From SAR86 cluster bacterium (GTDB lineage Bacteria > Pseudomonadota > Gammaproteobacteria > Magnimaribacterales > AG-339-G14), in NCBI GenBank assembly GCA_028135785.1, contig JAOIHS010000002.1, forward strand, positions 6,222 through 70,221: DNA of 64,000 bases, in the 5' to 3' direction. The notes beneath the pieces were generated by a model. It was not told the DNA's origin. It did not search any database and saw only the letters and a list, made by a program, of their open reading frames with translations. Below are positions 2,926 to 30,447 of this stretch, piece by piece; the stretch's first letter is position 1, and every line of letters starts with the position of its first letter. The position numbers were made by a program, and so were the translations under genes.

Positions 2926-4026
2926 TCATAATCTCATTGGCATGATTACATGAATAAGGTTTTCATCATCTAAATTCTTAACTAAGCAAGAATTTTCTGA
3001 ACCATAGAAAACAAACTCAACATTTTTTTTTGAGATAACAGATAAGGACTCTTGAATATAGGATATGTTAAACCCAATCTCAAAAGAATCACCATCGTAC
3101 TTAACAGGCACCTCTTCTTCAGCGCTTTCTTTACTAGGGTTATTAGCACAAATTTTTAAATTATTTTTTTCTAGAATAAATTTAACTCCTCTATACTTTT
3201 CGTTAGATAAAACAGATGCTCTATTCAAAGCAGTCTGAACTAATGTTTTTTCAACTTGAAGCTTTTGCTCTTCGCCAGAAGGAAATACTTTTTGATAGTC
3301 GGGATAACTTCCTTCAATTAACTTAGATATAAAAGAGAAGTTATCAGAGAAGACTTTTAGTTGGCTTGAATTAAAAGAAATGCTTACATTCTCAGGATAT
3401 AGAGATAAAAGCTTTTGCAATTCCAGTGCTGATTTTCTTGGAATAATTACTTTGTCTTCGAGAAAATCAGTTTTTATTTTGCAAGATGACCAAGCGAGTC
3501 TGTGGCCGTCTGTAGCAACTACATTTATTTGTGTTGGTGAAACCTCTAATAAAACTCCATTTAAATAATATCTTACATCTTGAGATGCCATTGCAAATGA
3601 AGTATTTTCTATTAAGGATGAAAGCTCTTTTCCAGGCAAAGCAACTTCTAATTCAAATTCTGGCTGCTCTATAACTGGAAAGTCGCCAACAGGAAGTGTA
3701 GAAAAATCTGCAAAAAACTTTAAAGCGCTAATTTCTAGCTGATTTTCTATTAATTCGAAGGTTAACATTGTGTCTTCCGGAACCGATCTTATTAAATCTG
3801 CCATCTTTCGGGCTGAAACAGTGGTTTCTCCTGGTGTCTCTATTTGCAAATTTTCTACAATAAATGTTAATTCTATTTCTAAATCAGTGGCTATTAGAGT
3901 TAATTTACTATCGTGTGCTTTTAGAAGTATGTTAGATAAAACAGGAATTGATTGTCTTTTTTCAGCTACTGATGAAACTAAGCTTAATGGCTCTGATATT
4001 TCCTTTTTTTCAACTGTAAATTTCAT
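2926..4026 (-). CDS. dnaN: DNA polymerase III beta sliding clamp
   Basis: 366 aa with clamp-like three-domain length. N-terminus [11 protein letters not shown]......R..IPVLSNILL and C-terminal MPMRL. Lies between dnaA and recF. Confidence 0.95.
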   Translation of the reverse strand: MKFTVEKKEISEPLSLVSSVAEKRQSIPVLSNILLKAHDSKLTLIATDLEIELTFIVENLQIETPGETTVSARKMADLIRSVPEDTMLTFELIENQLEISALKFFADFSTLPVGDFPVIEQPEFELEVALPGKELSSLIENTSFAMASQDVRYYLNGVLLEVSPTQINVVATDGHRLAWSSCKIKTDFLEDKVIIPRKSALELQKLLSLYPENVSISFNSSQLKVFSDNFSFISKLIEGSYPDYQKVFPSGEEQKLQVEKTLVQTALNRASVLSNEKYRGVKFILEKNNLKICANNPSKESAEEEVPVKYDGDSFEIGFNISYIQESLSVISKKNVEFVFYGSENSCLVKNLDDENLIHVIMPMRL

Positions 4027-6017: not shown

Positions 6018-6260
6018 ATGAAAAATTATCTGAAAAAAATTACTAAAAATAGTCTGATTTTTTTAGTTAAACTTTACCAATATCTAATAAGTCCTTTGCT
6101 CGGACCTAATTGTAGATTTCAACCAACATGTAGCGCCTACTTATTAGAAAGCGTTGAAAAACATGGACTGCGTACCGGGTTGAAATTAGGATTTAAAAGA
6201 ATATCGAAATGTCATCCCTGGGGAGGTCATGGTTTAGATCTCGTCCCAGATAAAAAATAA
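6018..6260 (+). CDS. yidD: Membrane protein insertion efficiency factor YidD
   Basis: Motifs CRFQPTCSAY and KCHPWGG. Position upstream of yidC. Confidence 0.87.
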   Translation: MKNYLKKITKNSLIFLVKLYQYLISPLLGPNCRFQPTCSAYLLESVEKHGLRTGLKLGFKRISKCHPWGGHGLDLVPDKK

Positions 6261-7912: not shown

Positions 7913-9220
7913 TTGATTAGTCTTGAGGATACAATAGTTGCTTGCTCTTCACCGCTCGGTGTGGGAGCTATTTCTAGTATAAGAGTTTCGGGTCCTGATT
8001 CTGGAGAGGTTTACACAAAAATTTCTTGTAAAGAATTAGTACATTTTAATGTAATTATTAAAGAAATTCCTCTTGCTGTTGATATAAAAGAGAAGTGTGT
8101 ACTTACTTCCTATAAAAATCCTAGTTCGTATACTGGTGAAGATTCTTTCGAGATATCTTGCCACGGAAATCCCTTAATTGTTGATCTTATAATTGATCAT
8201 CTAATATCTTTAGGATGTCGTTTGGCCGAACCAGGAGAATTTACGATGCGGTCTTTTTTGAATGGTAAAATAGGTCTTGTGGAGGCTGAAGCTGTATCTG
8301 ATCTAATTCACGCTGAAACTTTGGAAAAGGTAAGAGCGGTTGGAAGGTCTTTAAAAGGGGAATTCACAACAGAAATAGATAAAATTATATTAAATTTAAG
8401 AGAAATTAGAACACTTGTAGAAAGTGAGATAGATTTTAACGATCAAGAAATTAACATAGATTTTAGCCGCATTAAAGGAAACTTAGAGTCTTTTAGCAAT
8501 CTTTTGTCTTCTTTTATAAGCACGACAGAAGAGGCCGTTTATTTAAATGAGGGAATTAATACGGTCATTACAGGCCCTACTAATGTGGGAAAGTCTACTC
8601 TAATGAACTATTTATCTAAAAATGAGACATCTATCGTCTCCGAAATATCTGGTACGACCAGAGATTTGGTATCAAAGTCTTTTAAAATCGGCAATCATGT
8701 TTTTAATTTTTGTGATACTGCAGGCATAACAAAAGATTCCTCTGACCCTATAGAAAGAAAGGGAATCTCAATGGCGGAGAAAGCTCTTCTTGAGTGTGAT
8801 CTAGTAATAGAGCTTGTAGATGACAAAAATATTAACTACAAAAAAGTTTATCCAGATAAAAAGGTTCTGAGGGTAATTAACAAAATTGATAGGTTTAAAA
8901 ATAAAGACACTGGGTTGCTGGGTATTTCTTTGAAAACTAAAACTAATTTAGAGAATCTTGAAGAGGCACTTATAAAAACAGCATTTGGATCAGGGAAACC
9001 AAAGTTAAAAAGCTTTTCAGCTCGTTCGAGACATTTGGGTCTGTTACGTGAGTGTTATAAAGAAATTGAAGCTGCCAATGTTATAGATATTGAGGACTCT
9101 ATAGAATTGTTTGCAGAACATTTAAAACTTGGAAGTCTTAAACTTGGACAAATAAAAAATCCATATTCTTCAGATGACTTGCTTGGAGATATATTCGCTA
9201 ATTTTTGCATAGGAAAATAA
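7913..9220 (+). CDS. mnmE: tRNA modification GTPase MnmE
   Basis: G-domain GPTNVGKSTL, DTAGI and NKID, plus the C-terminal CIGK tetrapeptide. Confidence 0.93.
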   Translation: MISLEDTIVACSSPLGVGAISSIRVSGPDSGEVYTKISCKELVHFNVIIKEIPLAVDIKEKCVLTSYKNPSSYTGEDSFEISCHGNPLIVDLIIDHLISLGCRLAEPGEFTMRSFLNGKIGLVEAEAVSDLIHAETLEKVRAVGRSLKGEFTTEIDKIILNLREIRTLVESEIDFNDQEINIDFSRIKGNLESFSNLLSSFISTTEEAVYLNEGINTVITGPTNVGKSTLMNYLSKNETSIVSEISGTTRDLVSKSFKIGNHVFNFCDTAGITKDSSDPIERKGISMAEKALLECDLVIELVDDKNINYKKVYPDKKVLRVINKIDRFKNKDTGLLGISLKTKTNLENLEEALIKTAFGSGKPKLKSFSARSRHLGLLRECYKEIEAANVIDIEDSIELFAEHLKLGSLKLGQIKNPYSSDDLLGDIFANFCIGK

Positions 9221-20090: not shown

Positions 20091-21437
20091 ATGAATGTAG
20101 ATATTATTATATTAGCAGCTGGTAAAGGTACCAGAATGCAATCTCCACTCCCCAAGGTTTTACAGACGCTTGGACATAAATCACTGCTTCAACACATAGT
20201 CGATACATGTGCTGATATCAAACAAAGCAAACTTCATATTATTGTTGGCGATCAAAAGGAATTAGTTAAAAAGGTTACTTCAGTACCAAAATCAACCAAT
20301 TGGGTAAATCAAAACAAACAACTTGGTACTGGACATGCGGTGAAGCAGGCTTTGAATCAGCTAAGACCGAATGCTTGTTGTTTAGTGCTTTACGCAGATG
20401 GCCCTTTAGTAACTGCAAATACTCTAAAAAAACTAATTAAGGCAGCTGATAAAGATAATTTAAGTTTGCTTACATTTGAGCCCACTATTTCAAAAGGGCT
20501 TGGAAGAATTATTCGGAATGATAAAAAACAAATTCAAAAAATTATAGAAGAAAAAGATGCCTCTTCTCAAGAAAAACTTATTAAAGAAGTTAATTCAGGA
20601 ATATTAGCCACATCAAGTAAAAACTTTAAAACTTGGCTTCCCAAAATAAAAAACAAGAACGCTTCTAAAGAATACCAATTGACTGACATCATTGCTTTTG
20701 CAGTTAACGATCAAAAGAAAATAAATGCTATTAACTTAGGCAACACAAATGAACTGCTAGCTGCAAATGATGCTTTAGAGCTGCATAACTTAGAAAAAAT
20801 ATATCACAAAAATATAGCTGAAAAGTTTGTTAAAAAAGGCGTAAGGTTTGCAGATATCAACCGAGTTGATTTTCGAGGTGAAGTTGAGATCAAATCGGGA
20901 ACTTTCGTCGATAACAACGTAATTTTTGAGGGGAACGCTCTAATTGGTAAAGACTGTAAAATTGGATCGGGAAGCATCATTAAAAATGCCACTTTAAAAG
21001 ACAATGTTGAAATAGAGCCTTTTACAATCATAGAAAATTCTAAAGTTGGAACCAACGCGAAGATAGGACCTTTTGCCCATGTTGGTCCAGGCACAACCTT
21101 GGAAGACGAAGCAGAAATTGGTAATTTTGTGGAAGTAAAAAGGAGCGTTATTGGAAAGAAAACCAAAGCCAAGCACTTAGCTTATATTGGCGACGGCATA
21201 TTAAGAGATCAAGTAAACGTCGGCGCTGGAACAATTTTTGTCAATTACGATGGTAAAAATAAAAACAAAACAATAGTAGGCACTAAGGCTTTTATCGGCT
21301 CCAATTCTTCTTTAGTAGCTCCTTTAAAAATAGGCAAGAATAGCATGATCGGCGCTGGCTCAGTTGTCACTAGCAATGTTCCGGAAAATAAATTGGCTTT
21401 AGGCAGAAGCAGACAAAAAAATATTAAAAGAAAATAA
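20091..21437 (+). CDS. glmU: Bifunctional GlcNAc-1-P uridyltransferase / GlcN-1-P acetyltransferase GlmU
   Basis: N-terminal LAAGKGTRM, C-terminal left-handed beta-helix hexapeptide repeats. Its stop overlaps the glmS start (TAATG). Confidence 0.95.
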   Translation: MNVDIIILAAGKGTRMQSPLPKVLQTLGHKSLLQHIVDTCADIKQSKLHIIVGDQKELVKKVTSVPKSTNWVNQNKQLGTGHAVKQALNQLRPNACCLVLYADGPLVTANTLKKLIKAADKDNLSLLTFEPTISKGLGRIIRNDKKQIQKIIEEKDASSQEKLIKEVNSGILATSSKNFKTWLPKIKNKNASKEYQLTDIIAFAVNDQKKINAINLGNTNELLAANDALELHNLEKIYHKNIAEKFVKKGVRFADINRVDFRGEVEIKSGTFVDNNVIFEGNALIGKDCKIGSGSIIKNATLKDNVEIEPFTIIENSKVGTNAKIGPFAHVGPGTTLEDEAEIGNFVEVKRSVIGKKTKAKHLAYIGDGILRDQVNVGAGTIFVNYDGKNKNKTIVGTKAFIGSNSSLVAPLKIGKNSMIGAGSVVTSNVPENKLALGRSRQKNIKRK

Positions 21438-23263
21438 TGTGTGGAATTATTGCAGCAGCAACCAATAGAAATGTAGGTAAGCTTTTGGTCCAAGGCCTTC
21501 ATAAAATGGAGTATCGAGGATATGACTCAGCAGGTATTGCCTTACACCAAGAAACCTCAATAGTGCATTTAAGATGTTTAGGAAAAGTAAGGCGCTTAGA
21601 AGAGAAAATGATTGAAGAAAAGCCTAAGGGTAAAGTTGGTATTGCTCATACCAGGTGGGCAACTCATGGCGAGCCCTCTGAAGTAAATGCTCATCCGCAT
21701 TCCTCTAAAGAGAGGGTTTATATCGTACACAATGGCATCATTGAAAACTACATTGAGCTGAAAAAAGAATTAATTGAATACGGATATGCTTTCAGTTCGC
21801 AAACAGATTCAGAACTAATCGCTCATTTACTGGATTATTTTCTAAATCAGAAAAACACCATGATTGATGCCATGCATTCGATTAAAGAAAAAATGCAGGG
21901 TGCTTATGCGATTGCTGCAATTGATCAAGAAGATAGCGATTCTTTTTATCTGGCTAGAAATAATTCACCTCTATTATTAGGAGTAGGTTCAGAAGAGTTA
22001 TTTGCAGCCTCAGATCCTTTGGCTATTTCAGACTTAACGGATAAATTTATTTTTCTTGAAGATGGTGATGTGGTTGAGGCCTCCAGCAAAGCTTATAAAA
22101 TTTACGATAAAAATAAAGAAGAGGTACAAAGAGAGTTAACGCATTTAAATATTTCTGCTCAAGCAACTTCAAAAGGTGAATATAAGCACTTCATGGAAAA
22201 AGAAATATTCGAACAACCTACTGCTATCTTAAATACTATCGATGGCAGAATTGGCGGTGAAGACGTCTTGGAAAATATTTTTGGGGAAGGTTCAAACGAA
22301 TTATTGGCTCAAGTAAAAAGAATTCAGGTTGTTGCTTGCGGTACTAGTTTGCATGCAGGGAGAGTAGCAGCAAATTGGTTTTCTTCTATTTCTCAAGTTC
22401 CTACACAAATAGATTACGCCAGTGAGTATCGATACAAAAACCCATATATTGATAAAAATACTTTGCTAGTGACGATTTCACAGTCAGGCGAAACCGCCGA
22501 TACTTTGAGCGCTTTAAGATACGCTAAGAGTCAAAATTATTTGGGGTCGCTTACTATCTGTAACGTTCCAACTAGTTCTATTGCGCGAGAGTCTGATTAT
22601 GTTTTGCTCACCAATGCTGGACCAGAAATAGGCGTAGCTTCAACTAAGGCCTTCACCACTCAATTAACTGCTTTGATGCTGTTGGCACTTTCTATTGCTA
22701 AAGCCAAAGATATAAATCCAAAACTTAGAACTAGACTGGCTACAGCCCTTAGAGCTTTACCAGAAATAGTATCTCAGTCTTTAGAATTGAGAGGTCAACT
22801 GATAGAGATAGCACCAAGTATCGCCAATAAAGACAATGCACTTTTTCTAGGTAGAGGAATGTTTTACCCAATTGCTAAAGAGGGTGCTTTAAAACTAAAA
22901 GAAATATCTTACATTCATGCGGAAGCCTATCCGGCTGGAGAATTGAAACATGGTCCTTTGGCTTTGATAGATGAGAACATGCCAGTCATCGCGCTAGCTC
23001 CCGAAAGTGACTTTGCTGAAAAATTAATTTCAAATTTAGAAGAAGTAAAAGCGAGGGGTGGAACTTTATATGTGTTTGGTAACGCTGCTGGAGATCTAAG
23101 TATTGATTCCGGGAAACTCATCAACATGCCGGAGTGTGATTTTTTGCTTACGCCAATTTTATACACTGTGCCCTTGCAAATTCTTTCTTACGAGGTTGCT
23201 TTGCTTAGAGGTACAGATATTGATCAACCAAGAAACTTGGCTAAGTCTGTGACGGTGGAGTAG
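21437..23263 (+). CDS. glmS: Glutamine--fructose-6-phosphate aminotransferase GlmS
   Basis: MCGI N-terminal nucleophile, two SIS domains (SQSGETADT), conserved C-terminus NLAKSVTVE-stop. Confidence 0.98.
   Translation: MCGIIAAATNRNVGKLLVQGLHKMEYRGYDSAGIALHQETSIVHLRCLGKVRRLEEKMIEEKPKGKVGIAHTRWATHGEPSEVNAHPHSSKERVYIVHNGIIENYIELKKELIEYGYAFSSQTDSELIAHLLDYFLNQKNTMIDAMHSIKEKMQGAYAIAAIDQEDSDSFYLARNNSPLLLGVGSEELFAASDPLAISDLTDKFIFLEDGDVVEASSKAYKIYDKNKEEVQRELTHLNISAQATSKGEYKHFMEKEIFEQPTAILNTIDGRIGGEDVLENIFGEGSNELLAQVKRIQVVACGTSLHAGRVAANWFSSISQVPTQIDYASEYRYKNPYIDKNTLLVTISQSGETADTLSALRYAKSQNYLGSLTICNVPTSSIARESDYVLLTNAGPEIGVASTKAFTTQLTALMLLALSIAKAKDINPKLRTRLATALRALPEIVSQSLELRGQLIEIAPSIANKDNALFLGRGMFYPIAKEGALKLKEISYIHAEAYPAGELKHGPLALIDENMPVIALAPESDFAEKLISNLEEVKARGGTLYVFGNAAGDLSIDSGKLINMPECDFLLTPILYTVPLQILSYEVALLRGTDIDQPRNLAKSVTVE
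23246..23263 (+). repeat. glmS-terminus copy 0 (resident, functional): TCT GTG ACG GTG GAG TAG = SVTVE-stop
   Basis: Last 18 nt of the glmS ORF. Serves as the reference for copies 1-5. Confidence 0.95.
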
Positions 23264-23274
23264 TTTCGAGTGAC
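23264..23274. repeat. Left arm of a perfect 11-bp inverted repeat (TTTCGAGTGAC) bounding unit 1
   Basis: Exact reverse complement of 24141-24151. Starts immediately after the glmS stop and contains the GTG start (23270) of the unit-1 ORF. Confidence 0.85.
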
Positions 23275-24097
23275 TATTAAAGAAGTAAAAAAATTAGTTA
23301 CTTCATACACTCAAACAAAGAATAAACTAAAAAAACTTGCCCCCACTTTTAATTGGGGAAATCTTCTTGCTGATTATGGTGAGTATGTTTGTATTCAACA
23401 TTATTCTTTGAAACAAGCACCAATTGGAACAAAAGGATTCGATGCAAAAACCAAGAGAAATAAAAGTGTGCAAATCAAGACTGTCAGGGACACTACTAGG
23501 AACATCAGATTCACAAAAGGAGCAGATTACTTGTTGGTTATTGAGGTAGACGAAGATGCTGAATGGAACGAAGTTTATTACGGAAATTTTGCCAAAATTA
23601 TCAAGGCATCTTCCATGACAAAAAATGGCAAATATACTATAGGGATAGAGAAACTTAAGAAAATTTCAAACAATACCTACAAACCAAAGGAAGATATTGA
23701 ATTAACACTCAAAACAGGCAGGAAAATAACTGCTGCCTCTAGAGAAGAACTACATAAAAAACTTACAAAAATGGGGCATAAGTTACCTCGAATAGAAACA
23801 ATTAATAGACGAATAAATGACTTTGATTGGCAATTAGAAAGAGCATTTCAAATAAAGGTTCCTCCCAATTATGCTGAAGTAGAAAATTTAGTAGAAAAAG
23901 AAGGTTATGAGTGGTTTCCTGAAACACCAACTCAAGATAACAGCAGACAACCCTTTGTTTCAGATTTTGAAAAGAGAGTATATATTTCCCAAAAATACTT
24001 TTGCAAAGAGCATGGATTAAAAGAATGGTATGTTAGTGAAAAAAAAGAACTGGGTTGGGATTCAGCAAGGATAATTATGAGTTTTAGGCAGTCATAA
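23270..24097 (+). CDS. Hypothetical protein: N-terminal Mrr-like PD-(D/E)xK nuclease core fused to two C-terminal HTH-like modules of the kind seen in free-standing homing endonucleases
   Basis: 275 aa. Has E38 (GEY), D58 (KGFDA) and Q68-I-K70 (SVQIKT), followed by hydrophobic strand YLLVIEVDED, i.e. a D..QxK signature as in Mrr-cat nucleases. C-terminal half has RIETINRRINDFDWQLERAF and LKEWYVSEKKELGWDSARII (x-I-x-R-R-I..[GD]W..E-x-A type). The GGTGGAG of the glmS end serves as a Shine-Dalgarno-like element 7 nt upstream of the GTG start. Motif-level call only. Confidence 0.5.
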   Translation: MTIKEVKKLVTSYTQTKNKLKKLAPTFNWGNLLADYGEYVCIQHYSLKQAPIGTKGFDAKTKRNKSVQIKTVRDTTRNIRFTKGADYLLVIEVDEDAEWNEVYYGNFAKIIKASSMTKNGKYTIGIEKLKKISNNTYKPKEDIELTLKTGRKITAASREELHKKLTKMGHKLPRIETINRRINDFDWQLERAFQIKVPPNYAEVENLVEKEGYEWFPETPTQDNSRQPFVSDFEKRVYISQKYFCKEHGLKEWYVSEKKELGWDSARIIMSFRQS

Positions 24098-24140
24098 AAA
24101 ATGACTTATAAGTATAATAAAAAGTTAAATGTCTTTATTC

Positions 24141-24151
24141 GTCACTCGAAA
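24141..24151. repeat. Right arm of the perfect 11-bp inverted repeat (GTCACTCGAAA) bounding unit 1
   Basis: Exact reverse complement of 23264-23274. Ends 4 nt before glmS-terminus copy 1. Confidence 0.85.
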
Positions 24152-24155
24152 ACAG

Positions 24156-24173
24156 TCAGTGACAGTGGAGTAA
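24156..24173 (+). repeat. glmS-terminus copy 1: TCA GTG ACA GTG GAG TAA = SVTVE-stop
   Basis: 15/18 identical to copy 0. All 3 differences fall at codon third positions (stop TAG to TAA). A terminator-like hairpin follows. Confidence 0.85.
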
Positions 24174-24217
24174 ATCAACCTCAACTTTCGTTTTAATCCC
24201 GCATTCTGCGGTTGTTT
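24167..24217. repeat. Left arm of an approximately 50-nt imperfect inverted repeat flanking the R-M unit
   Basis: The reverse complement AAACAACCGCAGAATGCGGGATTAAAACGAAAGTTGAGGTTGATTTACTCC aligns with 25989-26036. The distal 25 nt match 22/25, and the AAAC(A)ACCGCAGAA block is shared apart from a 1-nt indel. The middle has small indels. Confidence 0.75.
24199..24217 (+). terminator. Possible intrinsic terminator (CCGCA-TTC-TGCGG followed by TTGTTT), candidate ancestral glmS terminator
   Basis: 5-bp GC-rich stem with a 3-nt loop and a T-rich tail, 26 nt after the stop codon of copy 1. The stem is short. Confidence 0.4.
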
Positions 24218-24339
24218 CGTAAATTAATAAAAAGAATTCCCGGTAAAAATTACCTTAAAAATTTCACCTATTTTTTCGTGTTAGCGGAAGTCATAAGGGG
24301 TTTATAAGAACGATTGCGATCTCTTATGAGTATTAATAA

Positions 24340-24378
24340 GGCAATTGCCTGGAAATTTCAATAATCACAAGTTATAAT
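24340..24378 (+). promoter_or_regulatory. Candidate promoter/operator of the methyltransferase gene
   Basis: 10-bp palindrome GGCAATTGCC (24340-24349) abuts a -35-like TGGAAA (24350-24355). A 17-nt spacer leads to a perfect -10 TATAAT (24373-24378), only 7 nt before the ATG at 24386. No Shine-Dalgarno is present, which suggests a leaderless mRNA. Confidence 0.35.
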
Positions 24379-24385
24379 TAAATCG

Positions 24386-25135
24386 ATGAAATTAAACAAA
24401 ATTTATGAAGAAGATTGCCTTTCAACATTAAAAAAGATGAAAGATGATTCAGTTGATGTTGTTATAACCTCTCCCCCATACAACATGAATCTAAGGATTA
24501 GAAATGGGAAATACTGCTCAAGACAAATCGTTAAAGAAATAAGTACAAAATATACTGAATTCAGCGATAACCTACCAATCGATGAATACAATGAATTTCA
24601 CACAAATGTATTAAAGGAACTCCTAAGAGTATCAAATCTAATTTTCTATAATATTCAAATTGTTACTGGTAGCAAAAGATCAATTTTTAAAATGATAGGT
24701 GAGTTTTCTGAGAATCTAAAAGAGATAATTGTATGGGATAAGGGAAATGGTCAACCAGCAATGCAACAACAAGTTCTTAATAGAAGAACTGAGTTAATAC
24801 TTGTTTTTGAGAAGGACTATCCGATAAGCAGGCAATTTAGAAAGAGAGGAGAATTTAAAAGAGGAACACTTGATGATTTGTGGTTGATAAAAAGAGGAAA
24901 AAAAGTCGGAGGAGAGAATCACGGAGCAGTTTTTCCTGAAGAACTCGTATCAACCATACTTGAAAACTTTTCTAAAGAAGATGACATCATCTATGATCCT
25001 TTTATGGGTACTGGAACAACCGCAGTTGTTGCTAAGCAATTAAATAGAAAATTCATTGGAAGCGAAATAAGTCAACGGTATATAGAAATAGCAGAAGAAA
25101 GACTTAAAAAGACAAATGATCTTTTAAGTAAATAG
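24386..25135 (+). CDS. Type II DNA methyltransferase, beta-class, predicted N4-cytosine specific
   Basis: Motif IV SPPY at residues 29-32 (DVVITSPPYN) lies N-terminal to motif I (DPFMGTGTT), giving the beta-class circular permutation. SPPY rather than DPPY favours N4mC. Adjacent to an MvaI/BcnI-like nuclease. Confidence 0.85.
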   Translation: MKLNKIYEEDCLSTLKKMKDDSVDVVITSPPYNMNLRIRNGKYCSRQIVKEISTKYTEFSDNLPIDEYNEFHTNVLKELLRVSNLIFYNIQIVTGSKRSIFKMIGEFSENLKEIIVWDKGNGQPAMQQQVLNRRTELILVFEKDYPISRQFRKRGEFKRGTLDDLWLIKRGKKVGGENHGAVFPEELVSTILENFSKEDDIIYDPFMGTGTTAVVAKQLNRKFIGSEISQRYIEIAEERLKKTNDLLSK

Positions 25136-25171
25136 ATAGTTTTAGAGAATCATTTATGTCATATTTCTTAT

Positions 25172-25924
25172 ATGGCAGACATAGAAAAAGCAAAACGAGA
25201 ATTTCAAAGAATCAAATCGCTTGGTTATGTCTTAAGCGATAAACCCTTTGCAAAAAAGAATGACGGAGCAATTGGCAATACTTTTGAAACTTTGCTTGGC
25301 GTTGAAGAGAACAACCTAAGAGATGCAGATTTTGAAGGTTGGGAATGCAAAAGTCAGCGCAAACACACCAATTCCGCTTCTAGTTTATTTACAAGGAAAC
25401 CAGACTATCCTCATGGAGGTGATGAATACATGAGGGAGAATTGGGGTATAAAAGATACTGAGTTCCCAAATTTAAAGGTATTTAGAACCTCAATTTATTA
25501 TCATAGGTGGTCGATGGTGTATAACAAATACAAAATGAGATTAAGGATAAATGAACCCAATGAAAGACTTGAAATAATCCTCTGTGATCTTGATGAAAAT
25601 ATTATTGATGAAAGTGTTTATTGGTCATTTAAATCACTAAAAGAAGCAAGTTCAAAACTTAAGAACACATTCGTTGTAAAAGCAGAAGAAAAAACCATTA
25701 ATGAAAAAGTATATTTTAAATATATAGAAGGAACAGTCTATATGAATTTTAATTTTGGTAATCTAATTAAATTAATAAAAGATGGCAAAGCAAGATATGA
25801 CAATAGACTTGGAGTATATCGCACAGGAGACAAGAGAGGAAAAAAACATAATCATGGGGGTGGGATAAGACTAGTTAGTTCAGACTCTTACAAAGATCTC
25901 TTCGATGATTATGAAAGTTTATAG
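25172..25924 (+). CDS. Type II restriction endonuclease, MvaI/BcnI-like
   Basis: 250 aa. The block GYV..(x)..DGAIGNTFETLLGVEENNLRDADFEGWECKS (D..ExK core ECK at 58-60) and the C-terminal HNHGGGIRL..YKDLF resemble, from memory, the BcnI/MvaI family. Lies 36 nt downstream of the methyltransferase. Confidence 0.7.
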   Translation: MADIEKAKREFQRIKSLGYVLSDKPFAKKNDGAIGNTFETLLGVEENNLRDADFEGWECKSQRKHTNSASSLFTRKPDYPHGGDEYMRENWGIKDTEFPNLKVFRTSIYYHRWSMVYNKYKMRLRINEPNERLEIILCDLDENIIDESVYWSFKSLKEASSKLKNTFVVKAEEKTINEKVYFKYIEGTVYMNFNFGNLIKLIKDGKARYDNRLGVYRTGDKRGKKHNHGGGIRLVSSDSYKDLFDDYESL

Positions 25925-25988
25925 TTTTGTATCTAAGGAATATAAAGTAACTTATGAGTAATTTATGCAACCAAACCCCAATACTTTC

Positions 25989-26036
25989 AAACACCGCAGA
26001 AATAGCGGAGAATGAAAGTCGAGGTTCACTTACTCC
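25989..26036. repeat. Right arm of the approximately 50-nt imperfect inverted repeat flanking the R-M unit
   Basis: AAACACCGCAGAAATAGCGGAGAATGAAAGTCGAGGTTCACTTACTCC is an inverted copy of the segment formed by GGAGTAA plus the hairpin region at 24167-24217. Its terminal TTACTCC pairs with the GGAGTAA of copy 2 (7-bp stem, 8-nt loop). Confidence 0.75.
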
Positions 26037-26051
26037 GTTACCGTGGAGTAA
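26034..26051 (+). repeat. glmS-terminus copy 2: TCC GTT ACC GTG GAG TAA = SVTVE-stop
   Basis: 14/18 identical to copy 0. All 4 differences are at third codon positions. Confidence 0.85.
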
Positions 26052-26243
26052 TCAAAGGGGGTGTAGTTTTAGAGTTCACATTAGAGACTTAATCGAACAA
26101 CCTCACCTATCACCAACCCTATTCCAAGAGACAACAAATAATCTTTAACCTTATTGAATGTCTTCATGAAGATAAGGGTTGCGATTTCTATTTATTCTGA
26201 GATTATAGAAAATTAAATTAAACTCATTTTGTAGGGAAAGATT

Positions 26244-26624
26244 ATGATAAAAAAAGAATCTATTTTTTTAGTATTTGTTGCTATTGGTGTATTTTCTGCT
26301 TCTTTGGGATATGGTTTTGTACCAAGCCTAACAATGCCTTTTTTGTATGAAATAGAAATAACCAATACAAATTTATTAAATATTTTAAGAGCAATTTCGG
26401 GTTTATATATAGCCTTAGTAACCTTTTGGATAATAGGTGCATATAACTCTAATCTTCAATTACCTGCTCTATGGAGTTTAACAATCTTCATGACTGGGAT
26501 AGCTTTAGGAAGAGTTGCAAGCATCTTAATTGATGGTTTGCCCAGTCCAATCTTTATTTTTTATCTATTTATAGAAATTATTTCCGGCTTAATAGGTTAC
26601 GCACTTTTGAAGGGGAAATTATGA
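26244..26624 (+). CDS. Small four-TM membrane protein (DUF4345-like)
   Basis: 126 aa, four hydrophobic segments, GRVASILIDGLPSP motif. The family assignment is tentative. Confidence 0.6.
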   Translation: MIKKESIFLVFVAIGVFSASLGYGFVPSLTMPFLYEIEITNTNLLNILRAISGLYIALVTFWIIGAYNSNLQLPALWSLTIFMTGIALGRVASILIDGLPSPIFIFYLFIEIISGLIGYALLKGKL

Positions 26625-26818
26625 AGTTTCTATTAAGCGTGATCGCACTATGCACTTTAATGATTAAAGCCCAACAGAGAATATTAGTTTTAGAAAAGGA
26701 ACTAATCCACAAAAAAAAGAGCAGTAAAGTCATTGGAATTACTAGAAAACCCCCCAATACGAATCATAAACAACTCCGTAACGGTGGAGTAGATTTGGTT
26801 GTACCGGTTTTAAAATAA
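26621..26818 (+). CDS. Small hypothetical protein (65 aa), translationally coupled to the upstream gene
   Basis: ATGA start/stop overlap with 26244-26624. Hydrophobic N-terminus and basic C-terminus. Its 3' end reads through glmS-terminus copy 3 in a different frame. Confidence 0.4.
   Translation: MKFLLSVIALCTLMIKAQQRILVLEKELIHKKKSSKVIGITRKPPNTNHKQLRNGGVDLVVPVLK
26775..26792 (+). repeat. glmS-terminus copy 3: TCC GTA ACG GTG GAG TAG = SVTVE-stop
   Basis: 16/18 identical to copy 0. Both differences are at third codon positions. Confidence 0.85.
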
Positions 26819-26828
26819 GGAGAAAGAT

Positions 26829-26993
26829 ATGAGATTTAGTATTTCAACAATTATAGGAATTTTCCTAGGTGTATCTACATTTATGTTTTATGTCTCCAAT
26901 GTCAGACCAGTGGGTTGGTTTGATTCACTGGTAGGTATGATTTTAGGGGTAATAGTATTTGTGGTAGTTAAGAGATTTAAAGGTTTTAAGTGA
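26829..26993 (+). CDS. Unlisted small membrane protein (54 aa, two TM segments)
   Basis: ATG at 26829 is preceded by AAGGAG (26817-26822, 6-nt spacer). Translation is MRFSISTIIGIFLGVSTFMFYVSNVRPVGWFDSLVGMILGVIVFVVVKRFKGFK. Too short for the ORF track. It is the only ORF in the interval between copies 3 and 4. Confidence 0.55.
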   Translation: MRFSISTIIGIFLGVSTFMFYVSNVRPVGWFDSLVGMILGVIVFVVVKRFKGFK

Positions 26994-27018
26994 AAACAAC
27001 TGTTACAAACAATTCAAC

Positions 27019-27036
27019 TCGGTCACTGTTGAGTAG
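27019..27036 (+). repeat. glmS-terminus copy 4: TCG GTC ACT GTT GAG TAG = SVTVE-stop
   Basis: 14/18 identical to copy 0. All 4 differences are at third codon positions. Lies 7 nt upstream of the msrAB-fusion ATG. Confidence 0.85.
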
Positions 27037-27043
27037 AAATATA

Positions 27044-28330
27044 ATGAAGGTTTTGTCGCTTTTATTGATCTCTTTTTTTAGTATTTTTGCATCAGCTGCG
27101 ATCACCGAAGCAACGATTCACTCTGAGAAAATTATTCTTGGCTCTGGTTGTTTTTGGGGTGCTGAAAAAGGTTATGAATCTCTGCCCGGAGTGATAGATG
27201 CAGTATCGGGTTATGCTGATGGCGATGGGGTGCGACCAACCTACAGAGAGATCACAAAGCCAAAAAATAAATTCAACCCAAACAATCATGCTGAAGTGGT
27301 GGAGGTTACTTATAACAAAAATATTATTTCTACAGAGGGCATTCTCATCCATTACCTAGAATCACATGATCCAACTCAAGTGAATAGACAGGGCAATGAT
27401 ATTGGAACCCAATATAGATCCATAATTCTTTATTCAAACGAAGATCAAAGATTAGCGATTTTGAATACGATTTCTATCTATCAGGCGCTGCTTAAAGATG
27501 CTGGATACGGCAAGATAGCAACTGAAGTAAAGCCAATCCAAGAGTTTTATAAAGCCGAAAAATACCATCAAGACTACATTAAAAAAAATCCAAATGGGTA
27601 TTGTCCAGATCACTCCACAGGAGTGACTTTTAATGAGGTTAAAAAAGGCATTTCAGATCTTAAACCATTTGCTGACCCAGCTTTTGACAATAGTCTTTTA
27701 TTAAAAGGAAAACATATTTTGGTAATAGTTTCAGATGGGTATTGTCCATATTGTGAAAAATTTAAAAAAGATATTACTAGTGAATACAAAGGAACGATTC
27801 CGCTCACCAACAGAACAGCCAGCCAGCTCAATGACTTAAAAATAAAAACACCAAAATGGGCCACACCAACAATTATTTTTATTCAAGACGGAACAGAGGT
27901 ATTTGGTCATCAAGGGTACATGACACCCAAAGAATTTTATAAGGCTCTTGGTAAATTCAAATTGGGTAATTCAGAAGCATATAAGGTAGCTTTTGCAGAT
28001 GGAACTGACGCAAGGTTCTGTAAAGAATACGAAATCTTTAAAAATACTCCTGATGGAGTTTTTATAGACAAGCTTAGTGGAGCGGCGTTATTCGATACAA
28101 AAGATCGATTTAATTCTTCCACAGGCTGGCTATCATTCACAAAGCCAGTATACGATTCTGTTTATACCAAACCTGATAATAGCTATGGGATGAGAAGAAC
28201 AGAAATAAGATCTATAACTTCTGACATTCACCTAGGCCATGTATTTGCTGATGGGCCAAATGGGATGCCAAGGTATTGTATAAACGCCACAGTGTTAGAA
28301 TTTATTAAACGAGCAGATATCAAAATCTAA
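27044..28330 (+). CDS. msrAB: Secreted tri-domain methionine sulfoxide reductase: MsrA - thioredoxin-fold (CPYC) - MsrB
   Basis: Signal peptide MKVLSLLLISFFSIFASAA. MsrA motif GSGCFWG. Middle Trx-fold with CPYC and cis-Pro TPT. C-terminal MsrB motifs GWLSF, HLGHVFADGP, RYCIN. Start moved to the ATG at 27044, because the track start at 26990 would read through copy 4. Confidence 0.85.
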   Translation: MKVLSLLLISFFSIFASAAITEATIHSEKIILGSGCFWGAEKGYESLPGVIDAVSGYADGDGVRPTYREITKPKNKFNPNNHAEVVEVTYNKNIISTEGILIHYLESHDPTQVNRQGNDIGTQYRSIILYSNEDQRLAILNTISIYQALLKDAGYGKIATEVKPIQEFYKAEKYHQDYIKKNPNGYCPDHSTGVTFNEVKKGISDLKPFADPAFDNSLLLKGKHILVIVSDGYCPYCEKFKKDITSEYKGTIPLTNRTASQLNDLKIKTPKWATPTIIFIQDGTEVFGHQGYMTPKEFYKALGKFKLGNSEAYKVAFADGTDARFCKEYEIFKNTPDGVFIDKLSGAALFDTKDRFNSSTGWLSFTKPVYDSVYTKPDNSYGMRRTEIRSITSDIHLGHVFADGPNGMPRYCINATVLEFIKRADIKI

Positions 28331-28388
28331 TAATATCTATCACAGTAGCCTAGTCTATAACCGTTACAGGATAAGAACCCTTTTTAGT

Positions 28389-28745
28389 TTAATTCAAATT
28401 ATATTTGATAATAAACTTAAGATCGCCCTGAGGAGATTCAAAATTGGTTGGCTGAAAAGTATTTGATACATCATCTAAATTACTTGTTTCGAAATTAAAT
28501 TCGAACCTGTTAGGTTTTTCTGAGCTTTGACTAATCAATTCACTAGTTTCTTCTTCTTCCTCAGTATCTCTAGTCAAGAAATATATCAATCCACCAACAA
28601 GTAACAACCCAGCTATAGCGCCTCCGCTTCCGCCTCCGCCATATCCTCCTCCGCCTGAGCTACTTCCACCTCCTCCTCCTCCATAAGCTTGGGTAAAACC
28701 AAGTGGAGCCATGACAAGCATGGTAACAAATAATAATATTTTCAT
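28389..28745 (-). CDS. Secreted/anchored glycine-rich low-complexity protein
   Basis: Signal peptide, a run GGGGGGSSSGGGGYGGGGSGG, one TM (AIAGLLLVGGLIYFL), then an acidic EEEEE tract. The only minus-strand gene in the array. Confidence 0.5.
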   Translation of the reverse strand: MKILLFVTMLVMAPLGFTQAYGGGGGGSSSGGGGYGGGGSGGAIAGLLLVGGLIYFLTRDTEEEEETSELISQSSEKPNRFEFNFETSNLDDVSNTFQPTNFESPQGDLKFIIKYNLN

Positions 28746-28961
28746 ATCTTCCTCTAATAATTTTATTAAAAAAATGTTGAGTGTCTAAAAGTTTTAAATT
28801 TTTAGTTAAAATAAAAAATTAAAGCTGAAGCAAGGCAACATCTTTAGTCTATGCTTAATTTTTTTAAATTCAATGCTTTCTAAAAGAGGTTATAAGCTAA
28901 AAGATATTAATGAACTCTATTTATTTAATCTTCAATCTCATCCAGTTTAGGCTTTAACTAA

Positions 28962-28976
28962 GTAACTGTTGAGTAG
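28962..28976 (+). repeat. glmS-terminus copy 5 (15 nt): GTA ACT GTT GAG TAG = VTVE-stop
   Basis: Ser codon lost, with an in-frame TAA directly upstream. All 3 differences from copy 0 are at third positions. Shares the 14-mer ACTGTTGAGTAGAA with copy 4. Confidence 0.7.
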
Positions 28977-29003
28977 AATCGCAAGTAAGGCTTAAAATAA
29001 GTA

Positions 29004-29390
29004 ATGAAACTAATAATCATAGCCTTATCAATATTTTTATCCTTTAATGCTTTTTCAGAAAAAGTTTATTTTATTAATCTTGAAGATGGAGATGTCTTAA
29101 AATCTCCTTTCCTCATCCAATTCGGTTTGTCGGGCAAGGGCGTTGCTCCTGCTGGAGTTGATATAGATAACACAGGTCATCACCATTTACTCATAAATGT
29201 CGATGAAATAAATTACTCTCTACCTATTCCTTCAACAAATCAGCATCTCCACTTTGGCTTAGGACAAACTGAAACTAATCTCGATCTGCCTCCAGGCAAA
29301 CACAAACTCCAATTGGTACTAGGTAATAAATACCATGTGCCTCTTCAACCATTACTAATCTCAAAGAAAATTGAAGTTGTCATAGAGTAA
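29004..29390 (+). CDS. Periplasmic DUF4399-like protein
   Basis: Signal peptide and the GHHHLLI motif typical of DUF4399. Confidence 0.6.
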   Translation: MKLIIIALSIFLSFNAFSEKVYFINLEDGDVLKSPFLIQFGLSGKGVAPAGVDIDNTGHHHLLINVDEINYSLPIPSTNQHLHFGLGQTETNLDLPPGKHKLQLVLGNKYHVPLQPLLISKKIEVVIE

Positions 29391-29502
29391 CTTTGAGCAA
29401 AGAAACCAAATAGTAAAACTTATTAATCAATAAAGAAGCAATGTTAATATCGTCCAAGAAAACGGAATAATAATAAAATCTATATTAATAAGTACTGGGA
29501 GA

Positions 29503-29859
29503 GTGCTACTAGCAATTTATTTTCTAGCACCAGGCATCGGAAAATTTGTATCATGGGATACGTCTCTTGCATTAATGGAAACCCATAACATTATCATGGC
29601 TCCGATTTTACTAGCCATCGCCGGTATTGCTCAAATTGGAGGAAGTATTTGTCTTTTATTTAATAAGAAGGTGGTTTTGTGCGCACTTGGCTTTGCTGCA
29701 ATGGTTTTGCTCATTAACTTAAATTTGCATGATTTTTGGAATGTTTATGAGGGGGTTGACGCTAAGCATGAGTCGCAAAATTTCTTTAAAAATTTGGGAA
29801 TATTAGCCGGCCTCTTACTGCTGGCAGCAGTCAACCTGGAAAAAGAGATTAATAAGTAG
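29503..29859 (+). CDS. DoxX-family membrane protein
   Basis: 118 aa, 4 TM, N-terminal LLAIYFLAPGIGKF. GTG start. A 10-bp AT-rich hairpin (29849-29879) spans the stop codon. Confidence 0.6.
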   Translation: MLLAIYFLAPGIGKFVSWDTSLALMETHNIIMAPILLAIAGIAQIGGSICLLFNKKVVLCALGFAAMVLLINLNLHDFWNVYEGVDAKHESQNFFKNLGILAGLLLLAAVNLEKEINK

Positions 29860-29919
29860 TCACACCATTTACTTATTAAGTTAATATTAAAATCAGTTAA
29901 ATAATCTAGGAAGGTAACA

Positions 29920-30447
29920 GTGAATCAGTTTAAAAATTTAATCGTACTCAGTCCGTTAATTTACGCCATTCATCATTTTGAAGAGCACATAATATTTAAT
30001 TTTATAGAATGGAAACTAAAATACTTTTCTCATTCAGCTGCAGCATTATCGACGGAAGCAATTTTGTCTATATTGGTCTGTATATTTGTAATATTTACTC
30101 TTCTACATTTAGTTAAAAACAATAGGGCCAGCGCATACGTTATTTTGTACATATTATTTACCATTCAAGTCATCAACGCATTTTTTCACATATTTTTCAG
30201 CCTTTACTACAGTGACTTTAGTCCCGGCACGATTACGTCAGTCTTGCTTTACTTGCCCGTTAGCTTTTTCATTGTCCGCACAGCATTCAAAGAGGGTTGG
30301 TTAAAAACTTATTCGGAATACGCGGTAATTGCTTTTTTAGGAACAATAACCTTCGTTTTATTTGAAATATATGGGCCAATAGTTATAGTTTTATCGGTGA
30401 TAGCTAGTCTTGGCTATTATGTTTGGGCTAACAAAAAATTAACTTAA
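29920..30447 (+). CDS. HXXEE-domain membrane protein
   Basis: IHHFEEH motif near the N-terminus, multi-TM. Confidence 0.6.
   Translation: MNQFKNLIVLSPLIYAIHHFEEHIIFNFIEWKLKYFSHSAAALSTEAILSILVCIFVIFTLLHLVKNNRASAYVILYILFTIQVINAFFHIFFSLYYSDFSPGTITSVLLYLPVSFFIVRTAFKEGWLKTYSEYAVIAFLGTITFVLFEIYGPIVIVLSVIASLGYYVWANKKLT

Follow-up and report, generated by a model that had tools for sequence, protein, structure and literature searches.

A restriction-modification gene pair behind glmS in a SAR86 bacterium as a probable recombinase-less cassette of a tandem array resembling staphylococcal cassette chromosomes

A 64,000-nt stretch of contig JAOIHS010000002.1 of a SAR86 cluster bacterium (positions 6,222 to 70,221; here called the window, with coordinates counted from its first letter) carries a restriction-modification (R-M) pair, a DNA methyltransferase gene (M) and a restriction endonuclease gene (R), between inverted repeats. 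At least four small cassettes lie in tandem behind glmS, an essential gene, and the pair occupies one of them. By analogy of architecture, its cassette, w2, is probably a recombinase-less derivative of an integrative element moved by a large serine recombinase (LSR), in a tandem array resembling those of staphylococcal cassette chromosome (SCC) elements. An original prediction, made from the letters of the window, had proposed a non-autonomous, MITE-like (miniature inverted-repeat transposable element) or foldback-type mobile R-M unit, or the scar of an inversion or duplication. A mobile, non-autonomous unit is consistent with what is described below, whereas the mechanism looks like LSR site-specific recombination.

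Cassettes and core copies behind glmS

The last 18 nt of glmS (TCN GTN ACN GTN GAR TAR), encoding S-V-T-V-E-stop, were used as the core search pattern. Five perfect core copies were identified in the window, all on the plus strand (23246, the real glmS end, 24156, 26034, 26775, and 27019), together with a sixth, degenerate copy carrying one mismatch at 28959. The five copies, in direct order, delimit four cassettes. The glmS-end copies reported beside the R-M pair were thus confirmed, and those at 26775, 27019, and 28959 are additional; a repeat search also returned a 19-nt glmS end in three direct copies (23244-23262, 24154-24172, and 26032-26050). The array comprises the following features, in which P' and P denote proposed left and right recombinase half-sites (arms).

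21437-23263, plus strand: glmS, 608 aa, the target gene (open reading frame [ORF] list); C-terminus 99% identical to that of the SAR86 metagenome-assembled genome locus L001
23246-23263, plus strand: core copy 0, TCTGTGACGGTGGAGTAG, last 18 nt of glmS and proposed attL of w1 (core scan)
23264-24155, plus strand: cassette w1, an 892-nt segment with a 275-aa gene
23264-23283: w1 left arm (P'), TTTCGAGTGACTATTAAAGA (inverted repeat of 20 nt, 90%)
23270-24097: w1 gene, 275 aa, DUF6998, weak match to methyl-directed restriction enzymes (Pfam, PADLOC)
24132-24151: w1 right arm (P), TCTTTATTCGTCACTCGAAA (inverted repeat of 20 nt, 90%)
24156-24173, plus strand: core copy 1, TCAGTGACAGTGGAGTAA, the glmS end with synonymous changes; proposed crossover at AC, 24162-24163
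24174-26033, plus strand: cassette w2 between its cores, holding the M-R pair; 24164-26041 (1,878 bp) from crossover to crossover
24167-24192, plus strand: w2 left arm, GGAGTAAATCAACCTCAACTTTCGTT, proposed P' half-site (inverted repeat, alignment, shuffles)
24386-25135, plus strand: M, N6/N4 DNA methyltransferase, 249 aa (PF01555, E = 2e-40; PADLOC MTase_II)
25172-25924, plus strand: R, MvaI/BcnI-family type II restriction endonuclease, 250 aa (PF15515, E = 1e-44; PADLOC REase_II)
26011-26036, minus strand: w2 right arm, AATGAAAGTCGAGGTTCACTTACTCC (plus-strand letters), proposed P half-site (inverted repeat, blastn, flank listing)
26034-26051, plus strand: core copy 2, TCCGTTACCGTGGAGTAA, with AC at 26040-26041
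26052-26774, plus strand: cassette w3, with a DUF4345 gene at 26244-26624 (Pfam)
26775-26792, plus strand: core copy 3, TCCGTAACGGTGGAGTAG (core scan)
26793-27018, plus strand: cassette w4, 226 nt, with a 54-aa ORF at 26829-26993
w4 arms: ATTTGGTTGTACCGG.. and ..AACTGTTACAAACAATT, matching at 14/25, inside the range of mismatched pairs
27019-27036, plus strand: core copy 4, TCGGTCACTGTTGAGTAG, the old right-hand junction directly before msrAB (27044-28330)
28959-28976, plus strand: degenerate core copy with one mismatch, TAAGTAACTGTTGAGTAG, possible outer limit of an older cassette holding msrAB

The methyltransferase and endonuclease assignments of the original prediction are borne out by the Pfam matches, and the adjacent M and R genes make the cargo of w2 a type II restriction-modification system.

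Inverted arms in a fixed register

The inverted arms around the R-M pair are real. A repeat search paired 24167-24192 with 26011-26036 (26 nt, 22/26 matching rather than the 22/25 first given, 85% complementary), and a gapped local alignment ran on through CCGC..GCGG and TGTTT to a score of 41. Shuffled sequence did not give comparable inverted matches: none of 2,000 dinucleotide shuffles reached this score (mean, 15.5; maximum, 33). One of 413 equally spaced window pairs did, presumably the locus itself (the identity of the pair was unchecked). No other occurrence of the w2 arms was found in the 64-kb window. The claim that the arms derive from the insertion site holds for the inner 7 nt (GGAGTAA / TTACTCC), the only part that copies it; the remainder is an element-specific half-site. 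The proposed 7-bp stem with an 8-nt loop (26030-26036 / 26045-26051) is predicted, but the stability of its region does not exceed that of shuffles, 69 of 200 folding equally well (z = -0.3).

Where arms are strong, as in w1 and w2, most cassettes keep to one fixed register: the left arm begins right after the upstream stop codon, and 4 nt separate the end of the right arm from the downstream core. In a register search, 17 of 32 cassettes scored ≥15/25, and mismatched pairs had a mean of 11.3 (standard deviation, 2.2). The w1 arms scored 19/25 and had no further occurrence in the window; w3 scored 9/25, its right arm not being recognizable. Arms match inside one cassette and not across a junction, and different cassettes carry different arms, all at the same 18-nt site. 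The w2 right-arm type was also found by blastn in the SAR86 loci L004 (9071-9138) and L008 (10458-10554), and further arm types occur in L002/L004, L008/L009, L003, and elsewhere. Pairing of arms 0.2 to 2 kb apart within mRNA was considered and dropped, the LSR model accounting for the cassette-wise pairing.

A circularized cassette would read arm' - 4 nt - core - arm, a quasi-palindrome of ∼56 bp, and given the fixed register of the arms, its symmetry centre falls between the A and C of the core's Thr codon. From this centre outward, GGAGT and TTTTGAA are common to the right halves and to the left halves read as reverse complement, a half-site consensus that the coding side of glmS partly fits. 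GGAGTAA / TTACTCC would thus be the inner, target-like part of the half-site. As in LSR elements, there is a quasi-palindromic att site of ∼40 to 56 bp around a non-palindromic dinucleotide, with inverted P'/P ends.

Gain and loss of cassettes among SAR86 relatives

Fifteen further SAR86-type glmS loci were fetched, giving sixteen in all, of which L006 and L010 were cut short and 14 were informative. Two to four core copies were present in 12 of these 14, while none of 64 non-SAR86 glmS loci had two or more. Copies with ≤2 mismatches lay nearly all on the plus strand downstream of glmS; the exceptions were 6818 of L003, upstream of glmS, and 52977 of the window, on the minus strand. The cassettes between copies measure 0.17 to 3.8 kb, most contain one or two genes, and several of these genes are on the minus strand.

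In most copies, glmS homology ends sharply at 18 nt. The core copies differ from each other mostly at synonymous positions of glmS codons, and core position 7 is invariant. Among non-functional copies, constrained-position mismatches numbered 17 left of AC (positions 2, 4, and 5) and six right of it, a skew that would arise because the incoming right half must encode ..VE-stop to finish glmS and the left half is unconstrained.

Locus L001 shares 92% identity with the window across the 8.9 kb up to the glmS stop and carries a near-empty allele: glmS and msrAB lie within ∼150 nt of each other, with the equivalent of 23264-27018 absent. In L016, one different cassette is followed by the same core-msrAB junction as in the window (9349). 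The degenerate core at 28959 is kept with its flanks in L001, at 12924. In a separate observation, msrAB, apparently a "core" gene, may itself occupy an ancient cassette (27019-28976; L016 9349; L001 12924).

Several other arrangements were seen in these arrays. Tiny cassettes of 168 to 250 nt, containing two arms or a tiny ORF (L015 9404-9571, L004 8901-9107, and L008 8901-9149), suggest heavy internal deletion or fusion of neighboring cassettes. An internal core copy in L008 (9129-9185) has a longer, 39-nt duplicate of the glmS end, which reaches 21 nt into the coding sequence 5' of the core. Next to this duplicate comes CCATAGCTAGGTT, the complement of the coding part, so that the palindrome at this junction comes from the glmS sequence itself; a simple attP × attB exchange does not predict it. 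On the minus strand of L012 (10695-11672), a cassette gene encodes an HNH endonuclease fused to a HIT domain, a nuclease-type cargo. In the window, the w1 gene has a GTG start codon at 23270, within its own left arm, and 9 nt before that codon comes GGAG from the glmS end (region 23246-23272), placed like a ribosome-binding site. This placement means that the first cassette may be translated from the glmS transcript.

Arms and cores adjoin large serine recombinase genes

At its start, the contig of L089 has the final 13 codons of glmS and the core, followed by an arm (TTTTGTTTCAACATGTGACTT), a 127-aa ORF, and M and R genes with 73% nucleotide identity to the window pair. After R come small minus-strand ORFs, a 254-aa Resolvase-only protein, a 599-aa LSR (PF00239 and PF07508), and, at the contig end, the inverted arm. 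A profile of the LSR family matched the solved integrases of A118, SPbeta (YokA/SprA), TP901-1, and phiC31; a phmmer search of the PDB with the single L089 LSR gave no match. Homologues with 34 to 56% identity were found in five further loci, and in all of them an arm and a core lie 3' of the LSR gene. The distance from the LSR stop is ∼30 to 40 nt in L091-L096, apart from L092, whose long LSR ORF continues across the site. Matched arms flank the core on both sides in L091, L092, L093, and L095, as they would in a free attP or equally in a tandem of like elements.

An identical LSR (P0075) was found in three samples with the same arm and TCCGTCAC and then with three different continuations, one of which is its own left arm. 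The continuations diverge from core position 9. These different neighbors of one LSR give direct evidence that it moves and place the exchange point at or left of that position.

A small Resolvase gene lies directly 5' of the LSR gene in L089 and in three of the five further loci (L091-L093). The small Resolvase-only genes (195 to 254 aa) are at L091 77-841, L092 989-1576, L093 939-1526 and 6360-6950, and L089 4034-4798, and their product could be a partner, a resolvase, or a regulator. Positions 1-8825 of L093 contain a tandem of two related LSR elements that repeats every ∼5.4 kb, with identity reaching 93% in parts and matched arms between the two.

In one LSR subgroup (L092 1952-4171, with the core at 3798; proteins P0063-P0066, 737 to 739 aa), the LSR ORF runs through arm, core, and arm into a left-end ORF. 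Because this ORF spans the att site, integration would cut off ∼120 residues, left as a separate gene beside glmS, and such a split could be an integration-dependent switch. The left-end ORF (127 or 111 aa) is conserved (L089 about 170-384, L090 7736-8071, and window 26075-26188), and its stretch ..FLNRSGIKTVRG..WS.. resembles the LSR recombinase domain (hhalign probability, 13%; E = 0.002). As a guess, it might act as a directionality factor.

Cassettes without a recombinase

Locus L090 has the order atp-glmU-glmS followed by a 2.6-kb cassette at the glmS end. This cassette contains genes for a C5 methyltransferase and a restriction enzyme after a left-end ORF that has 63% identity to its L089 counterpart. 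Its LSR gene appears decayed, with just the last 104 codons kept before the arm and core. A second remnant lies in the window. At the left end of w3, 26075-26188 resembles the left-end ORF of LSR elements, which is also the C-terminal extension of long-form LSRs, and contains an in-frame stop, making it a pseudogene (tblastn of P0064 and P0065 against the whole window, E = 1e-5 and 2e-4). Apart from this pseudogene, tblastn of all LSR homologues against the arrays of the 16 SAR86 genomes identified no LSR remnant.

Homologues of R (64 to 73% identity) occur in several settings; exact-protein look-ups of the window GlmS and R returned no match. In L097, which has the closest R homologue, a core copy lies 38 nt past R and is followed by a left arm of the commonest array type (TTCGAACAGTGAATT-like). 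The related pairs of L089 and L097 therefore carry arms analogous to those of w2 and different in sequence. For the R-M homologues in L081-L088 and L098-L102, neither core nor arms were found within the available contig, indicating that the R-M pair is not tied to this vehicle.

Proposed mechanism and points against it

The model that we favor is as follows. Small integrative elements would insert into the last codons of the essential glmS gene in SAR86. Their attP would be the ∼56-bp quasi-palindrome arm' - 4 nt - TCNGTN-AC-NGTNGARTAR - arm, with the Thr codon's AC at its centre. The LSR, encoded beside a small serine recombinase at the right end of the element, would catalyze insertion by exchanging strands at AC with the glmS end (attB). 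After integration, the P' half would rebuild the glmS end (..T-V-E-stop), and the P half with the old glmS end would be pushed downstream. Repeated insertion at the rebuilt end would stack cassettes in tandem, the newest beside glmS, and deletions would remove recombinase genes, leaving short cassettes with just cargo and arms.

For w2 (24164-26041), the two inverted arms would be the P' and P half-sites, GGAGTAA / TTACTCC being the portion that mimics the glmS end, and the cassette would once have carried, or been moved by, a cognate LSR. An allele free of w2 (24164-26041 absent) is expected to have the junction ...TCAGTGAC|CGTGGAGTAATCAAAGG, a w2 circle the junction AATGAAAGTCGAGGTTCACTTACTCCGTTAC|AGTGGAGTAAATCAACCTCAACTTTCGTT, and the gene of the cognate LSR should precede a w2-type arm, GAAAGTCGAGGTTC, plus core.

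Several points weigh against this model. No LSR gene was found in the 64-kb window; LSRs are encoded in L089 and L091-L096, with a remnant in L090, so w2 is at most a recombinase-less derivative. Nor was an LSR-bearing element found with w2-type, w1-type, or commonest (TTCGAACAGTGAATT) arms, and the link of w2 to an LSR is consequently an analogy of architecture. Fifteen of the 32 cassettes lack recognizable arms, and the matched-arm junctions of L091, L092, and L095 could be tandem copies instead of free attP circles. The symmetric hairpins ∼36 to 50 nt from the centre lie beyond a typical LSR half-site and are unexplained. Under standard LSR rules, attP recombines, through a 2-bp staggered cut, with attB alone, and insertion beside an existing P' arm would need relaxed recognition of the right half-site. 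Finally, the shared core of 18 to 22 nt is longer than LSR sites require.

Alternative explanations

An integron-like array was considered first and set aside in view of the link to LSR genes. Under this explanation, a tyrosine recombinase gene outside the array would provide the enzyme to insert promoter-less cassettes at the glmS end (attI-like) and to recognize folded, attC-like palindromes. The tandem order of small, mostly single-gene cassettes behind one fixed site fits this explanation, as do the imperfect, cassette-specific palindromes that vary in sequence and keep their register. However, no integrase gene adjoins the array, which has glmU and the atp operon upstream of glmS (the search for a tyrosine recombinase elsewhere in the genome was not exhaustive), and the boundaries (TCNGTNACNGTNGARTAR), read directly, lack the GTTRRRY / RYYYAAC signature of attC. 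In the glmS arrays, moreover, each cassette end holds one part of the palindrome, the genes do not all point the same way, several of them being on the minus strand, and the directly associated recombinases are of the serine type and carried by elements. The 8 bp between the symmetric parts also vary at two positions between partner sites. Such variation disfavors strand exchange by tyrosine recombinases, while serine recombinases need identity at the central dinucleotide alone; core variation outside AC thus fits a serine recombinase and fits a tyrosine recombinase poorly. An integron-like origin is quite unlikely.

A scar of inversion or duplication, or a homologous exchange that brought in glmS-end DNA of other strains, with the inverted arm as a flipped piece of downstream sequence, could account for the hairpin repeated in inverted form and for the resemblance of the left arm region and terminator to the sequence after the long 39-nt glmS-end copy of L008. 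It leaves the LSR linkage and the LSR remnant of L090 unexplained, and 18 nt of glmS homology is too short for RecA-type exchange. In addition, the same arm register recurs in many unrelated cassettes, and the same design in at least four cassettes of the window and across SAR86 genomes. We regard this explanation as very unlikely.

For a MITE-like or foldback transposon, the terminal inverted repeats would be copies of the insertion site, the transposase would be encoded elsewhere, and the glmS-end repeats would be target-site duplications. Inverted repeats flanked by direct repeats do resemble a transposon insertion, and the R-M unit contains no mobility gene. Yet the 18-nt direct repeats are not identical, differing from one another mostly at synonymous positions, and the arms are single-copy in the window and, although different between cassettes, all sit at the same 18-nt site. 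The mobility genes that adjoin such arms encode serine recombinases and not transposases, which makes this part of the original prediction highly improbable.

A Tn7-like element at attTn7 would suit a location beside glmS, the classic Tn7 target, but it is virtually dismissed by a junction inside the last glmS codons instead of ∼25 bp downstream, a flanking repeat that is the 18-nt glmS end and not a 5-bp duplication, and the lack of any Tns-like Pfam match among the w1, w2, and w3 ORFs examined.

Organization of the R-M cassette

Probable recombinase-less derivative of an LSR element as it is, w2 also has the following non-coding features.

24191-24346, plus strand: conserved non-coding block of the w2-type frame, 78% identical to L008 9185-9340
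24199-24217, plus strand: terminator-like hairpin, CCGCATTCTGCGG, then TTGTTT, facing transcription from glmS and w1 (DNA fold)
24350-24378, plus strand: promoter-like site TGGAAA-17-TATAAT, just upstream of M (promoter scan)
25994-26008, minus strand: candidate inverted copy of the hairpin, CCGCAGAAATAGCGG, with a T-rich tail on the minus strand, possibly a relic

The original prediction placed a hairpin in both arms. The left one was recovered as a terminator-like site in a pattern scan (24199-24211, plus strand) and has a homologue in L008 at about 9192-9212. The right copy is less certain: the hairpin extension alone (24193-24225 versus 25975-26010) was reached by 13 of 5,000 shuffles, modestly above chance, and its G-C stem, by eye, is weakened by two changed positions in L008 and missing in L004, for which reason it is regarded as uncertain. 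The minus-strand fold of 25975-26060 had a z of -3.9, and the right hairpin could block inward transcription from the right. A 64-aa ORF across the right arm (25954-26148) was rejected as a gene and is better taken as frame noise; the site under it is read through by long-form LSRs in another frame.

The w2-type frame recurs in L008 with different cargo, its left block being 78% and its right end 80% identical. The best-conserved part of the non-coding block is 24241-24299, with the nearly invariant stretch GGTAAAAATTACCTTAAAAATTTCACCTATTTTTTCGTGTTAGCGGAAGTCATAAGGGG. No further copy of the block was found in the fetched loci, and an Rfam search of 22500-30000 gave no match at E ≤ 1; the block is thus not a known RNA family and may serve the cassette frame as a regulatory region or small RNA.

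Judged from these sequence features, w2 is now most likely an insulated module, in which the left hairpin would act as a terminator and, with the cassette's own promoter-like site, would keep glmS read-through from reaching M and R. The R-M pair forms a discrete unit, acquired horizontally, and encodes no mobility of its own, and w2 cannot move alone without a cognate LSR. Furuta, Abe, and Kobayashi reportedly described in 2010 mobile forms of R-M units, with the R-M pair as an insertable unit flanked by repeats; here, the repeats differ in being probable recombinase half-sites, and the same frame holds non-R-M cargo in L008. The w4 right arm, by eye, is similar to the arm adjoining the LSR in L093.

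Comparison with known systems

The Ccr proteins of SCC elements are LSRs, some SCC units have no recombinase genes, and restriction-modification genes are among SCC cargo; recombinase-less units and R-M cargo are also found in the glmS arrays. SCCmec and pseudo-SCC elements and the glmS cassettes alike use the 3' end of a conserved housekeeping gene, preserve its frame, have direct and inverted repeats, and accumulate in tandem. This agrees with the description of SCC as inserting at the 3' end of orfX with integration-site direct repeats, terminal inverted repeats, and tandem accumulation (PMC3780952). The systems differ in the target (glmS rather than rlmH/orfX), in the host, here a streamlined marine gammaproteobacterium, in the recombinases (a small Resolvase-only protein and one LSR rather than CcrA/CcrB or CcrC), and in cassette size (0.17 to 3.8 kb rather than tens of kilobases). 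With site, repeats, and tandem layout shared, but with another target gene and a recombinase module of different make-up, the SAR86 glmS array is, by this comparison, an analogue of SCC and not a member.

With the LSR integrases of phages and integrative and conjugative elements (A118, SPbeta SprA, TP901-1, phiC31, and Bxb1), the SAR86 enzymes share the Resolvase and Recombinase domains, in some cases a zinc ribbon, and a quasi-palindromic att site of ∼50 bp around a non-palindromic central dinucleotide. Unlike in those systems, the identity between element and target (18 to 22 nt) is much longer than usual, and one LSR subgroup has an ORF that continues across the att site to take in the left-end ORF. 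No phage genes were recognized: PHROGs gave no match for ten other genes of LSR elements, which thus show no sign of being phages. Three scans of a viral contig collection (with the family-A junction pattern, the L089 LSR protein, and the core plus TTTTG) also gave no match.

The glmS end is conserved across bacteria, and Tn7 inserts by transposition downstream of the glmS stop. Both Tn7 and the SAR86 elements appear to use this very conserved 3' end as a safe landing site; they differ in that the proposed exchange point here is inside the last codons and the element would supply the replacement gene end.

Significance

SAR86 is one of the most abundant marine bacterial groups, and, to our knowledge, its genomes are small and not known for mobile elements. 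Literature searches for SAR86 with glmS, and for serine recombinase with either glmS or SAR86, found no relevant description, within incomplete literature coverage. We consider the chances about even that these arrays constitute a hitherto undescribed system of gene capture by serine recombinases, a "glmS cassette chromosome" of SAR86 that stacks small cargo cassettes, several with defence genes, into the end of an essential gene conserved almost universally, that has in one subgroup an LSR whose split at integration could be a built-in switch, and that has as its target S-V-T-V-E-stop, present in most bacteria.

The inverted-repeat architecture around the R-M pair is explained by arms that look like recombinase half-sites and not by a new type of transposon. 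Restriction genes are present in several of the cassettes examined, and SAR86 appears to trade accessory genes, those for defence among them, at a single safe site, much like staphylococci with SCCmec. Even genomes with 92% identity through glmS differ in the cassettes behind it, which makes cassette content a population marker. The glmS-targeting LSRs, if active, could be used for site-specific integration at a landing site that already exists, as a complement to Tn7.

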